A DNA stretch of 58,183 bases from Candidatus Deferrimicrobium sp. (GCA_049664185.1 JBATEU010000236.1:1-58183), one strand, 5' to 3'; shown: positions 22,216-30,756, numbered from the stretch's first letter. Notes: generated by a model not told the origin, from the letters alone. A program made the numbers and translations.

Positions 22216-23787
22216 ATGTCCTTCCTGAAGTCCCGGTATGAATCGATCCGAAGCGGTGCCGAAATCGCGGATATCGGGTTCTTTCTCCTGCGGATCGTCG
22301 CCCTTGCCGGTGCCATCGCATGGCTCGTGGCCACCCGCGCGTCCCGGGAAACGGCGGCAACGTTCCTCCGGATCTCTCTTTTCTTCGTCGCGTACGGCCT
22401 GCTGATCTACGCCCTCCTGCTCTACCGGTTCGAGAGGAAGAAGGAGATTTACCGGCTGTCTCTCCTTTTTGACCTCGTGTTCGTCGGTCTCCTGATCGTC
22501 CACTCGGGGGGGGTCGCCAGCAGTTTCTTCATAGGGTTCTACCTCCTCACGGCCCTCCACGCGTTTTATTACGGCTATCGCAGCGGGCTCGCGACGGCCG
22601 CTTTATGCGCGGTCGCTTACCTGGTCGCCGGTCTCCGCGTCTCGGTCATCGAGCCGGTCGACTTTCTCCTGCGCACCACCTTCCTTTTTCTGATCGGTCT
22701 GCCCATCGGACTTCTGTCGGGGATCCTCCGGAAGGACAAGGAACAGATCGGGGCGCTCAACCGGGAGCTCGTCCAGTCCATCGAGACGATGCGCCTGCTC
22801 CAGGGAAAGCTCGTGGAGGCGGAGAAGCTCTCCGCCCTGGGGCGATTCACGGCCGAAGTGGCCCACGAAATCCGCAACCCGCTGACGGCCATCGGAGGAT
22901 TCGCCAAGCGCCTCGAGAAGCGCCTCCCGGGGGGCACGCGGGAACGGGACGATGCGGGAATCATCGTGGCCGAGGTGGCGCGCCTCGAGCGGATCCTGAA
23001 GGACACGCTGACCTTCTCGCACGAGACGAGGACCCGCCTCGCCTACGTGGACATGAACGACGCCGTCGCCCTGGCGGAGCGGGATTTCGCCGACGCGTGC
23101 AGGGAGAAGGGGATATCGCTCGAGATCCGGCCGGACCCGTCCCTGCCCTTCTGCGTCGCGGATCGGGAGCAGGTCCGACAGGCCCTTGCGAACCTCGTGA
23201 TGAACGCCATCGACGCGATGGAGGCGGGAGGGGGGCTGACGATTTCCACCCGGACGGCGTGCGACAACGGGGTCCGCTCCATCACGATCGACGTCGCCGA
23301 CACGGGGCCGGGAATCCCCGCGGATCTCGCCGACCGGATCTTCGAGCCCTTCTATTCCACGAAAAAGATCGGTCACGGCACGGGGCTCGGCCTCTCCATC
23401 TGCAAGAAAATCATGGAGGAGCACCGGGGATGGGTGCAGATGACCACTTCCCCCGGCAAGGGCTCGGTGTTCAGCCTTCAATTCCCGTTTCTCCCGCCGG
23501 AGGAGACCTTCAAGGTGCAGTGCTGGGAAGCGATGCGTTGCGGCATGGAGAAGATCGAGGGCGTGGAGGGTCGATGCCCTGCCTACCCGAACTTCGGCCG
23601 CATCTGCTGGTCGGTGGCCGGTACGTTCTCGGAGACGAAGGTCCAGGGCATCGCGGCCCAAAAGCTCGGAGACTGCCGGAAGTGCCCGTTCTACATAACG
23701 ATCCAGCCGACATGCGATCCGCCCCCATCGACCGCCGAGCCGTACGAGGCCCACCGCCGCCATCTCCTCCCGGGGAAGTCCGCGTGA
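22216..23787 (+). CDS. Membrane sensor histidine kinase with a C-terminal Cys-rich two-CW-like domain
   Basis: It has several N-terminal TM helices, a coiled coil, an H-box EVAHEIRNPLTAI, N-box NLVMNAIDAM, and G-boxes DTGPGIP and GTGLGLSI. The tail is CWEAMRCG…CPAYPNFGRICWSVAG…CRKCPFY. The start could be 22180. Confidence 0.85.
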   Translation: MSFLKSRYESIRSGAEIADIGFFLLRIVALAGAIAWLVATRASRETAATFLRISLFFVAYGLLIYALLLYRFERKKEIYRLSLLFDLVFVGLLIVHSGGVASSFFIGFYLLTALHAFYYGYRSGLATAALCAVAYLVAGLRVSVIEPVDFLLRTTFLFLIGLPIGLLSGILRKDKEQIGALNRELVQSIETMRLLQGKLVEAEKLSALGRFTAEVAHEIRNPLTAIGGFAKRLEKRLPGGTRERDDAGIIVAEVARLERILKDTLTFSHETRTRLAYVDMNDAVALAERDFADACREKGISLEIRPDPSLPFCVADREQVRQALANLVMNAIDAMEAGGGLTISTRTACDNGVRSITIDVADTGPGIPADLADRIFEPFYSTKKIGHGTGLGLSICKKIMEEHRGWVQMTTSPGKGSVFSLQFPFLPPEETFKVQCWEAMRCGMEKIEGVEGRCPAYPNFGRICWSVAGTFSETKVQGIAAQKLGDCRKCPFYITIQPTCDPPPSTAEPYEAHRRHLLPGKSA

Positions 23788-24038
23788 TGGCCGCTTCCAC
23801 GCAATCGAAACGGAAGCGCTTCCACCAATAATTTCCTGATAGACAATTCGTAATTATGAATAATAATATGTCGCTACATTTATCTTTTGCCGTTACTGTT
23901 GATGAAACGGCAGGAAACGGAGGGAGGATGAGCGACATGTTCCACAGGATGGGAAAGGAGGTGAGCGGGTAAAAATTCCATGCCGGCCCCGTGAAGGCAG
24001 TGCGTGTTTCGAAAACAGGAAGTCCTTGAGAGGAGGAT

Positions 24039-29309: not shown

Positions 29310-29361
29310 CGCAGGATCGTCCGGGCATTCCCCGGGCGACGATGGCAAGAGGGAGGAGAAT

Positions 29362-30756
29362 GTGAAGCGGTACCTGATCATGCTGTCGCTGATGCTGGTC
29401 GCCGGTTCCGTCGCCCAGGCGAAGGAGCACCCCGGCGCGGCGTACATCGGGAAGAACGGCTACCAGGGGCCTTCGACGTGCGAGTCGCAGGGGTGCCACC
29501 CCGGCACGGCGAAGAAGTTCCTCTCCACCGTCCACTGGAAACACGCCTCGCCGGTGGACAACGTGGACAACGTCGAACCGGGGAAAGAGTACGGGATGAA
29601 GAACCGGATCTACACGATGTGCAACGGCAACGACATCGTGAACAACCTGAAGGAGATCCCCCCCAACCCGAAAACGGGGAAGACGAAGTTCACGGGGTGC
29701 AACACCTGCCACCCGGGGAATCACATCAGCGACGTGGGGAGCACCGGGAAGGACGCGGAGAACGCGATCGACTGCCTCGTGTGCCACTCCTCGGCGTACG
29801 ATTTCCGCCTGCGGAAACCGTACAAGGACGAGATGGGCCGGGTCGTGATGGGGCAGGACCGGGGCGTGAAGGCGGCGATGGCCGTGGGGAAGCCGGGCGC
29901 CAAGAACTGCATGGTGTGCCACGAGGCGGCGGGCGGCGGCGTCCTCCTGAAGCGGGGGTTCTCCTTCACGAAGGAAACCGACGTCCACGCCGCGAAGAAA
30001 ATGGTCTGCGTCGACTGCCACGGGGCGAAGGACCACCGGATTCCGACGGGGTACGACCCGAACAACTGGGCCAACGACGGCGTGCGGGTCGCCTGCGCGG
30101 ACTGCCACGGAGAGAAGCCCCACAAGGACGAGGATGCCAACCGCCACGCGGCGCGGATCGCCTGTCAGACGTGCCACATCCCCCGGACCGGCGGCGCACT
30201 GGCGAAGGATTTCACGAAGTGGACCCAGGGGTCCGACGGGTTCTACGAGCCCACCACGCTCCGCATGGAGGCCAACGAAACGGCGCCGGTGTACGCATGG
30301 TACAACCGGACCGTGGCCAACACCCCCGCCTTCATCGGTCCGAAGGGAAGCCGGGCGGACAAGGAGAGCCGGATCCATCCCTTCAAGATGTACGAGGGGA
30401 AGGCGTACTTCGACCGGAAGACCGGTCGGCTCCTGTCCATGGATTTCGCGCCGCCGATGGCTACAGGTGACACCCTCGCCGGCGTCGCCTCCGCCGCGAA
30501 GACCCTGGGGATCCGGGAGTACGACCCGATCCCCGGCTGGCAGACGGTCTACTTCGGAAGCAGCCACCTCGTGACAAAGGAGAAGGCCCTTTCCTGCGCG
30601 AACTGCCACGCGCAAAACGGCGTCCTGAACTTCCGGGCGCTCCGCCGCCCGCCTTTCATGAAATCGTCTTGCTCAGCATCAGCCGCTGGGAAGGGTGGAA
30701 GCCGCAGGAGTACAGGAAGCGTTGCAGGTCGATATTCTCCGGAGATACCTGCGTGA
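29362..30756 (+). CDS. Periplasmic octahaem c-type cytochrome (7 CxxCH plus one CX4CH)
   Basis: GTG start 5 nt after GGGAGGAG. It has a signal peptide VKRYLIMLSLMLVAGSVAQA. Motifs are CESQGCH (CX4CH, 29479-29499), CNTCH, CLVCH, CMVCH, CVDCH, CADCH, CQTCH and CANCH. The last ~33 codons overlap the convergent GNAT gene, so the true 3' end is uncertain. Confidence 0.8.
   Translation: MKRYLIMLSLMLVAGSVAQAKEHPGAAYIGKNGYQGPSTCESQGCHPGTAKKFLSTVHWKHASPVDNVDNVEPGKEYGMKNRIYTMCNGNDIVNNLKEIPPNPKTGKTKFTGCNTCHPGNHISDVGSTGKDAENAIDCLVCHSSAYDFRLRKPYKDEMGRVVMGQDRGVKAAMAVGKPGAKNCMVCHEAAGGGVLLKRGFSFTKETDVHAAKKMVCVDCHGAKDHRIPTGYDPNNWANDGVRVACADCHGEKPHKDEDANRHAARIACQTCHIPRTGGALAKDFTKWTQGSDGFYEPTTLRMEANETAPVYAWYNRTVANTPAFIGPKGSRADKESRIHPFKMYEGKAYFDRKTGRLLSMDFAPPMATGDTLAGVASAAKTLGIREYDPIPGWQTVYFGSSHLVTKEKALSCANCHAQNGVLNFRALRRPPFMKSSCSASAAGKGGSRRSTGSVAGRYSPEIPA

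Follow-up and report, generated by a model that had tools for sequence, protein, structure and literature searches.

A run of six contiguous genes at positions 22216–30756 of a contig from Candidatus Deferrimicrobium sp. (GCA_049664185.1, JBATEU010000236.1:1-58183; this stretch of 58,183 nucleotides is the window referred to below) raises the question of whether a sensor kinase, sulfur-linked proteins, a porin-like protein and two multihaem cytochromes form one functional module or merely lie side by side. A first-pass annotation had read them as one extracytoplasmic sulfur-redox module with its own sensor kinase, in the style of a porin–cytochrome conduit. In a gene inventory compiled from open reading frame listing, translation, and Pfam and NCBIfam scans of the window, the six genes named in that annotation are all present where it had placed them: a histidine kinase, a rhodanese–cytochrome lipoprotein, a DsrE-like protein, a sigma54 activator, a porin-like DUF3373 protein and an octahaem cytochrome. 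Translation bears out its haem counts (11 plus 8, the latter being seven CxxCH and one CX4CH), and its description of the activator and porin-like genes as remnants corresponds to real truncations relative to an intact sister locus (G010). The proteins are extracytoplasmic, as it had proposed, and their families are linked to sulfur: rhodanese, DsrE and, by homology, octahaem tetrathionate reductase (OTR; PDB 1SP3, E 5e-20). Family assignment, which it had suggested as a check, places neither cytochrome in a purely nitrogen-cycle family. The unity of the set fares differently. Comparison with related genomes indicates that the region is probably a mosaic of three evolutionarily independent pieces, namely (A) an intact gene for a rhodanese–selenocysteine–undecahaem protein, (B) a decayed activator/DUF3373/OTR cluster and (C) an orphan kinase, and a sulfur role for each unit is plausible.

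The gene of unit A, at 24039–26663 on the plus strand, encodes a single protein only with read-through of an in-frame TGA at 25311–25313. The frame contains no other TGA, and its product would be an 874-residue lipoprotein with selenocysteine (Sec) at position 425, in the motif GEG-U-GG. It begins with a signal for lipid attachment (lipobox FFAGC) and carries 11 CxxCH motifs, the order being two rhodanese domains, haem 1, Sec and ten further haems; haem motif 1 (CQGCH, 25215–25229, plus strand) is the sole haem motif 5′ of the Sec codon. Pfam rhodanese (PF00581) matches in two stretches with 97.9 bits, and the catalytic Cys is present in the second domain only. By Pfam and translation, the corresponding loop of the first domain (24450–24482, plus strand) is VVVASYWGNDG, without Cys; the active-site loop of the second domain (24996–25016, plus strand) is CYTGHTG, and the same loop occurs in the relatives P0121, P0128, P0130, L057 and L062.

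The genomes of relatives were searched whole, in six frames, for homologues of the rhodanese–cytochrome gene. Full-length homologues at 77–78% identity keep exactly one TGA at the same place, as do cytochrome-only homologues at 33–36% identity; throughout, the motif is GEG-U-GG or GEG-U-AG. In a codon census drawn from a scan of one genome per species, the site was located in 70 of the best 79 loci, spread over many phyla: 67 of the 70 have TGA, two have a Cys codon (TGC, TGT) and one has TGG. In P0123 the site reads GPG-C-GG. The 449 residues 3′ of the TGA are conserved at 49–89% identity, and in the read-through frames the signal peptide or lipobox precedes the TGA, with ten of the 11 haem motifs following it. 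A protein database search returned 950 matches, nearly all of about 440 residues, starting just past the TGA and without a signal peptide, and the database entries for the N-terminal half terminate in ...GEG. The lone TGG (Trp) in place of Sec belongs to locus L078, from a metagenome-assembled genome (MAG) of Anaerolineales (site 8088–8090), where genes for an OTR-like cytochrome and a QmoC-like protein also lie no more than 8 kb away (neighbours 1378–2553 and 12855–13934).

A putative Sec insertion sequence (SECIS) hairpin, TTGCGTC-CGTGCC-GACGCAA (25324–25343, plus strand), starts 11 nucleotides past the UGA, and its loop contains GU. In alignments of the rhodanese-fused subfamily, 98.2% of cells are paired and compensatory changes occur in four of seven pairs; for the cytochrome-only subfamily, the values are 93.6% and five of six. 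None of 500 shuffles was as good, and slid controls were far less paired (31–61% for the rhodanese-fused subfamily). The free energy of the single-sequence fold of the TGA region in this copy is not exceptional (z = -0.81), and an Rfam scan around the TGA gave chance matches only and no SECIS family; the hairpin is therefore convincing because of its covariation rather than its single-sequence fold. The same genome encodes the Sec machinery, with matches to selA (471.5 bits), selB (297.6 bits), selD (321.7 bits) and tRNA-Sec (73.2 bits). Taken together and judged by the usual in-silico criteria for selenoproteins, these findings make the TGA at 25311 a predicted Sec codon. The selD gene of this genome also carries an in-frame TGA (G000:C363), and the lineage is rich in selenoproteins. 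Throughout the genus, short genes for a rhodanese domain with a single in-frame TGA are found repeatedly (G013:C17:18024-18272, G012:C16:354485-354739, G002:C4:64126-64386); these presumably represent known rhodanese-type selenoproteins.

Relatives of the Sec-undecahaem protein number at least 579 in the scan of one genome per species. They occur in relatives of Desulfobacterota, in Planctomycetota, Actinomycetota and Chloroflexota and in other groups, and were seen in Anaeromyxobacter and in Desulfuromonadales MAGs. No NCBIfam family model matches the fused protein beyond generic rhodanese pieces. A literature search for the family found only papers on MccSep (see below) and general selenoproteome papers, with no description of it, and a 2026 selenoproteome review gives as cytochrome selenoproteins only ExtKL, the GSU2204 family and the OTR family. 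The intact unit thus represents, as judged from sequence, a widespread and uncatalogued family of predicted selenoproteins. A rhodanese is fused to the 11-haem cytochrome in 20 of the 79 loci and in a further 44 is encoded close by, from a few hundred bases up to about 2 kb away (64 of 79 together), and stand-alone rhodanese–TGA–cytochrome genes occur amid unrelated neighbours in three phyla. This linkage is the strongest functional clue for the Sec-undecahaem protein.

Several members depart from this architecture. The rhodanese domains are C-terminal rather than N-terminal in P0084, an additional C-terminal multihaem domain is present in P0030 and P0047 (Deferrisomatales), and P0130, from a monoderm, has N-terminal SLH cell-wall anchors. 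Genome G012 contains two copies of the rhodanese–Sec–cytochrome gene, one of which (C19:15420-18016) is split by a frameshift near residue 494–497. In L036, a 71%-identical relative (11568–13073 and 13418–15887), a second multihaem cytochrome, of 501 residues, follows the rhodanese–Sec–cytochrome gene; behind it come genes for DUF134, a NifX-like protein and a PAS-sigma54 activator, a trio resembling the flank of DUF3373–OTR in G010.

The neighbourhoods of these genes bear directly on whether the six genes belong together. When the 8 kb around each of the 79 relatives of the 11-haem Sec cytochrome are inspected, DUF3373 is found at no locus, a DsrE-like gene at two (both same-genus fragments), a kinase of this type at four, an OTR-like gene at four and a sigma54 activator at five. 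From the other side, among 30 DUF3373 loci from a 301-genome sample of the phylum, 10, from several families, have an OTR-family cytochrome gene directly 3′ of DUF3373; eight of these ten cytochromes are 65–90% identical to that of the window, and the flanks are otherwise housekeeping genes. The co-conservation expected by the first-pass annotation is therefore seen for two pairs, the rhodanese with the 11-haem cytochrome and DUF3373 with OTR, and not for the six-gene set.

Sister genomes also carry one unit without the other. The backbone in G010 runs QmoC-like, DsrE, ..., sigma54, DUF3373, OTR, GNAT and SDR, with neither the kinase nor the rhodanese–cytochrome gene; those two stand in the window where G010 has thioesterase, enoyl-CoA hydratase and DUF134/NifX-like genes. 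In G012 and G013, which are the closest relatives that also have the rhodanese–cytochrome gene, this gene is found at another site, between Liv transporter genes and an MFS gene. The DsrE-like gene comes next after the activator in G021 and G019, is present there as a fragment in G008, and has other contexts elsewhere.

Unit B was compared with intact sister loci in G010, G021, G024, G007, G031 and G008. The ancestral layout consists of the gene for a sigma54 activator of 588 residues, which has two PAS regions and lacks a receiver domain, and, divergent from it, genes for a DUF3373 protein (510 residues) and an octahaem cytochrome (455 residues). The spacer in G010 (L141 7109–7124) contains a near-consensus sigma54 promoter, TGGCAC-N5-TCGCA (TGGCACgccgcTCGCA), about 55 nucleotides 5′ of the DUF3373 start codon and divergent from the activator. 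In the sister genomes, a PAS-sensing sigma54 activator would thus drive a DUF3373 outer-membrane barrel and an OTR cytochrome from a divergent sigma54 promoter.

In the window, little of this layout is whole. The activator remnant (27312–28076, minus strand) matches residues 339–588 of the intact 588-residue protein (tblastn with the G010 protein) and lacks residues 1–338, including the Walker A region; its sigma54-interaction domain covers Pfam positions 66–167 only, together with the lid and the helix-turn-helix. At the deletion junction (28076–28086), activator codon 339 lies head-to-head with, and nine bases from, codon 27 of the porin-like gene, and about 1.4 kb is gone, including the sigma54 promoter. 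The DUF3373 pseudogene (28086–29309, plus strand; Pfam DUF3373 positions 2–339 of 409) lacks residues 1–26, which comprise the signal peptide, and the last 78 residues, its homology to G010 stopping at 29267; most of the 55 DUF3373 matches listed for the phylum sample, and every one of the best 30, reach profile position 408–409. About 0.54 kb is missing before the gene for the OTR-family cytochrome (29362–30756, plus strand; 7 CxxCH plus CX4CH, CESQGCH), whose last 28 residues are replaced by read-through into an opposite-strand GNAT gene, homology to G010 stopping at 30642.

Orthologues of this cytochrome at 85–93% identity are present in 17 of 27 genus genomes, and in G012 and G013 the cluster is almost wholly lost. 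G012 has the same aberrant cytochrome tail fused to a GNAT remnant, and this shared tail argues for real decay rather than misassembly. The three deletions would have cost the activator its sensor and ATPase start, the cluster its promoter, the barrel its two ends and the cytochrome its tail. The porin–cytochrome half is, on sequence grounds, non-functional in this genome, its remnants being probably unexpressed, and only the DsrE-like gene is intact.

That gene (26780–27253, minus strand) encodes a 157-residue protein that matches Pfam DsrE (PF02635) with 34.6 bits against a cut-off of 22.7, and that shares with DsrE and TusD both the fold and, by eye, a Cys (Cys115 in MEVCAVATRVF) at the place of the active-site Cys of the family. 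Characterised DsrE/TusD proteins are cytoplasmic, whereas this one has a predicted cleavable signal peptide and would therefore be periplasmic. No DsrF/H-type partners are encoded near the gene, and no NCBIfam model matches the protein.

The histidine kinase (22216–23787, plus strand) has HisKA and HATPase_c domains (Pfam), six predicted membrane helices and a Cys-rich C-terminal tail. Full-length orthologues at 63–88% identity are present in about 14 sister genomes and have no shared neighbours, and no response regulator is encoded adjacent to the kinase. Nor could it signal through the adjoining activator, because that protein is a PAS one-component regulator without a receiver domain. It had been described as the module's own sensor; from the gene contexts, it appears instead to be an orphan merely lying upstream. 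The tail (23500–23787) contains seven Cys and two C-W dipeptides, has no Pfam match at E ≤ 0.001 and is conserved in the orthologues, which align to about residue 500. Between the kinase and the rhodanese–cytochrome gene, a cluster of sigma70-like promoter matches (23805–23869, plus strand) holds four of the five promoter-like sites in 21900–30900, against 1.2 expected, by consensus matching only. Unit A would be a self-contained selenoenzyme gene, probably with its own promoter.

What the selenoenzyme might do can be approached through its haem ligands and its rhodanese. Across 62 aligned domains, there are 11 conserved CxxCH motifs (motif 1 is kept in all 62), ten invariant extra His residues, and no further conserved Cys or Met. 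With 11 conserved haem motifs and ten such His, one haem should be either five-coordinate or ligated by Sec. An AlphaFold2 model of the protein has a predicted local distance difference test score (pLDDT) of 82.9 overall. A phmmer search of the cytochrome domain against PDB gave no match, and a profile search of PDB gave a 34-bit match of haems 1–3 to hydroxylamine oxidoreductase; as this match is weak, motif-driven and limited to haems 1–3, membership of that family was rejected.

In the mechanism proposed here, the signal peptide and lipobox would direct export of the whole rhodanese–Sec–cytochrome chain. The second rhodanese domain, through Cys320 in CYTGHTG, would be expected to hold sulfane sulfur as a persulfide, and Sec425 would be located in a loop that is rich in glycine and probably flexible, after haem 1 and before haems 2–11, with the eleven haems serving as electron supply. 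Sulfur could pass from the rhodanese persulfide to Sec as a selenenylsulfide, which the haem chain would then reduce; overall, polysulfide or other sulfane sulfur would be cleaved reductively at its S–S (or Se) bonds. That a rhodanese with a conserved catalytic Cys is a near-universal partner points to sulfane sulfur, or to selenium carried likewise, and the strict conservation of Sec suggests catalysis rather than simple electron conduction. By analogy, we infer that the protein is a sulfane-sulfur or polysulfide (possibly selenium) reductase, with substrate and direction both resting on this inference. A bolder and rather doubtful version would make it a new class of extracytoplasmic chalcogen reductase, in which the rhodanese persulfide is passed to Sec on the flexible Gly-rich loop and Sec is also the sixth ligand of the haem without a conserved His. 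To our knowledge, a His/Sec-ligated haem has never been described.

The nearest functional counterpart is MccSep, a proven polysulfide reductase for S0 respiration in Geobacter sulfurreducens (PMC13510729). Like the window protein, MccSep (ExtKL, GSU2937-2936) is an exported multihaem cytochrome c with one Sec at an in-frame UGA, and its gene is split in two by annotation (PMC13510729, PMC5877670, PMC6148476). Both also have a SECIS hairpin 3′ of the UGA and a functional association with a rhodanese lipoprotein, which for MccSep is ExtH, alongside the porin ExtI, and sulfur/selenium chemistry is plausible for both. The differences lie in the build of the proteins. In MccSep/ExtKL, the conserved haem motifs number five, Sec follows them, and a Cys that ligates haem is likewise conserved (PMC13510729). 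The window protein has 11 haems rather than five; its Sec lies between haems 1 and 2 (GEG-U-GG), and not in an Ig-like domain (DGUP) that follows the haems; its family has no conserved Cys outside the haem motifs; and its rhodanese is fused, whereas ExtH is separately encoded. The MccSep/ExtKL model NF040886 (cut-off 250 bits) gave no match on the fused protein at E ≤ 0.01, and in a whole-genome scan it found nothing at this locus and 20 bits at best elsewhere. Furthermore, phmmer detected no similarity to the MccSep chains (PDB 9wt8/9wt9), both of which were in the searched PDB library. Membership of the locus in ExtHIJKL was likewise rejected, with no ExtKL, ExtI or ExtH matches in NCBIfam. 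The rhodanese–Sec–undecahaem protein appears to be analogous to, and not homologous with, MccSep beside ExtH, and to have evolved independently.

The octahaem cytochrome of unit B resembles OTR of Shewanella (PDB 1SP3; TIGR04315). It has eight haem motifs and aligns over positions 24–436 of the 440 in TIGR04315; its score of 148.9 bits, below the curated cut-off of 375, marks a homologue outside the curated family, and the phmmer alignment with 1SP3 begins at chain residue 73, past the N-terminal part that bears on the Lys-ligated catalytic haem of that structure. It differs from OTR in that its first motif is CX4CH, in that its closest relatives are always preceded by a DUF3373 barrel gene, and in that the window copy is without its native C-terminus and promoter. 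OTR-like paralogues (35–38% identity) with one in-frame TGA were also seen (G008:C84:14644-15861, G005:C7:137813-139036, G008:C6:2103-3326, G053:C16:59322-60587), and in G008 one of them lies directly beside a TGA-free orthologue. These paralogues fit the "GenBank-annotated" OTR-family selenoprotein of the 2026 review.

A conserved two-gene cassette in which an outer-membrane beta-barrel gene directly adjoins a multihaem cytochrome gene recalls the MtrCAB, PioAB, Pcc and Ext conduits, and the first-pass annotation had likened the set in style to a conduit of this kind, without matching it to Mtr/Pcc. That likeness does not extend further. The barrel of the conduits is of the MtrB/PioB type (PF11854) or the Pcc OmbB type, encloses a periplasmic decahaem protein and has an outer-surface cytochrome as partner, whereas that of the window matches DUF3373 only and is shortened at both ends. 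The sole cytochrome of the cassette is octahaem and has a plain type I signal peptide, and no lipoprotein cytochrome for the outer surface is encoded with it. Rather than an electron conduit, DUF3373–OTR would better fit a channel for substrate uptake that supplies a reductase in the periplasm. None of the three papers found to mention DUF3373 is a functional one.

Other explanations of the locus have to be set against these results. If the TGA at 25311 were a genuine stop or a pseudogenising mutation, the gene would yield a rhodanese/monohaem lipoprotein and a leaderless decahaem protein, or would be dead. This would agree with the behaviour of gene callers, which split the gene everywhere, and with the unexceptional fold and missing Rfam SECIS match of this copy; it is nevertheless extremely improbable in view of the recurrence of TGA (and, twice, Cys) at the site across many phyla, the conservation of the residues that follow, the covarying hairpin and the complete set of Sec machinery genes. 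In addition, cytochrome c maturation cannot deliver haem to a c-type cytochrome that lacks a signal peptide. The truncations of unit B might similarly be assembly artefacts, the real genome having an intact cluster. The fragmentation of the assembly would favour this, whereas three separate, differently placed deletions within 3 kb, the near absence of the cluster from G012 and G013 with the same OTR–GNAT tail kept in G012, and the lack of a second DUF3373 copy in the assembly make it very unlikely.

For a single module comprising all six genes, a porin–cytochrome conduit with sulfur carriers run by the adjacent kinase, speak the contiguity of the genes, the predicted export or membrane location of all their products and the sulfur-linked families. 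Such a module is highly unlikely, given that the whole set is not co-conserved, that the kinase has no conserved neighbours, that the activator is not a response regulator, that porin, activator and promoter are all hit by deletions here, and that the two other units occur apart in sister genomes. The function proposed for unit A faces its own competitor, according to which the protein is mainly an extracellular or periplasmic electron-transfer protein or a metalloid reductase (for Fe(III)/Mn(IV), selenite or tellurite). Eleven haems, a weak MtrC-like domain match in family members (PF22113) and the SLH anchors of monoderm members (P0130), which would place them at the cell surface, are in line with this, as is the reduction of selenite by MccSep as well (PMC13510729) and the tie of ExtI and ExtH to selenite and tellurite reduction (PMC5877670). 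This is a minority possibility, set against the rhodanese partnership and the strict conservation of Sec described above. Some observations do weigh against the mosaic and the reductase readings preferred here. The four OTR-like genes near Sec cytochromes may exceed chance, the rhodanese–cytochrome gene of G012 and G013 is accompanied by a DsrE-like fragment, and the genome is a MAG in 490 contigs. Foldseek with the AlphaFold2 model found no structural relative, and pLDDT falls below 50 around the Sec loop, so that the model lends no support to proximity of Sec and haem.

Units A and B may conceivably have been linked in function at an earlier time, because the rhodanese–cytochrome gene and the DsrE-like gene, the latter as a fragment, travel together in G012 and G013. 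The Sec-undecahaem enzyme may once have partnered the DsrE-like carrier and the DUF3373/OTR uptake-and-reduction cassette, in an alternative route of sulfur respiration that is now being dismantled in this lineage. Adjacency in one genome suggested a module, and comparative genomics splits it into units that are probably independent, one of them a pseudogene cluster; function should not be transferred across these six genes in annotation. The family of unit A is systematically mis-annotated, its gene being cut in two by gene callers, and is absent from NCBIfam. As a testable cassette, the sigma54-driven pair of DUF3373 and OTR-like genes would give a first approach to the function of DUF3373 and to what OTR-type cytochromes do physiologically. 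If the reading of unit A is true, the rhodanese–Sec–undecahaem protein would be a second, independently evolved combination of selenium, haem and rhodanese for the reduction of sulfur compounds, alongside MccSep.

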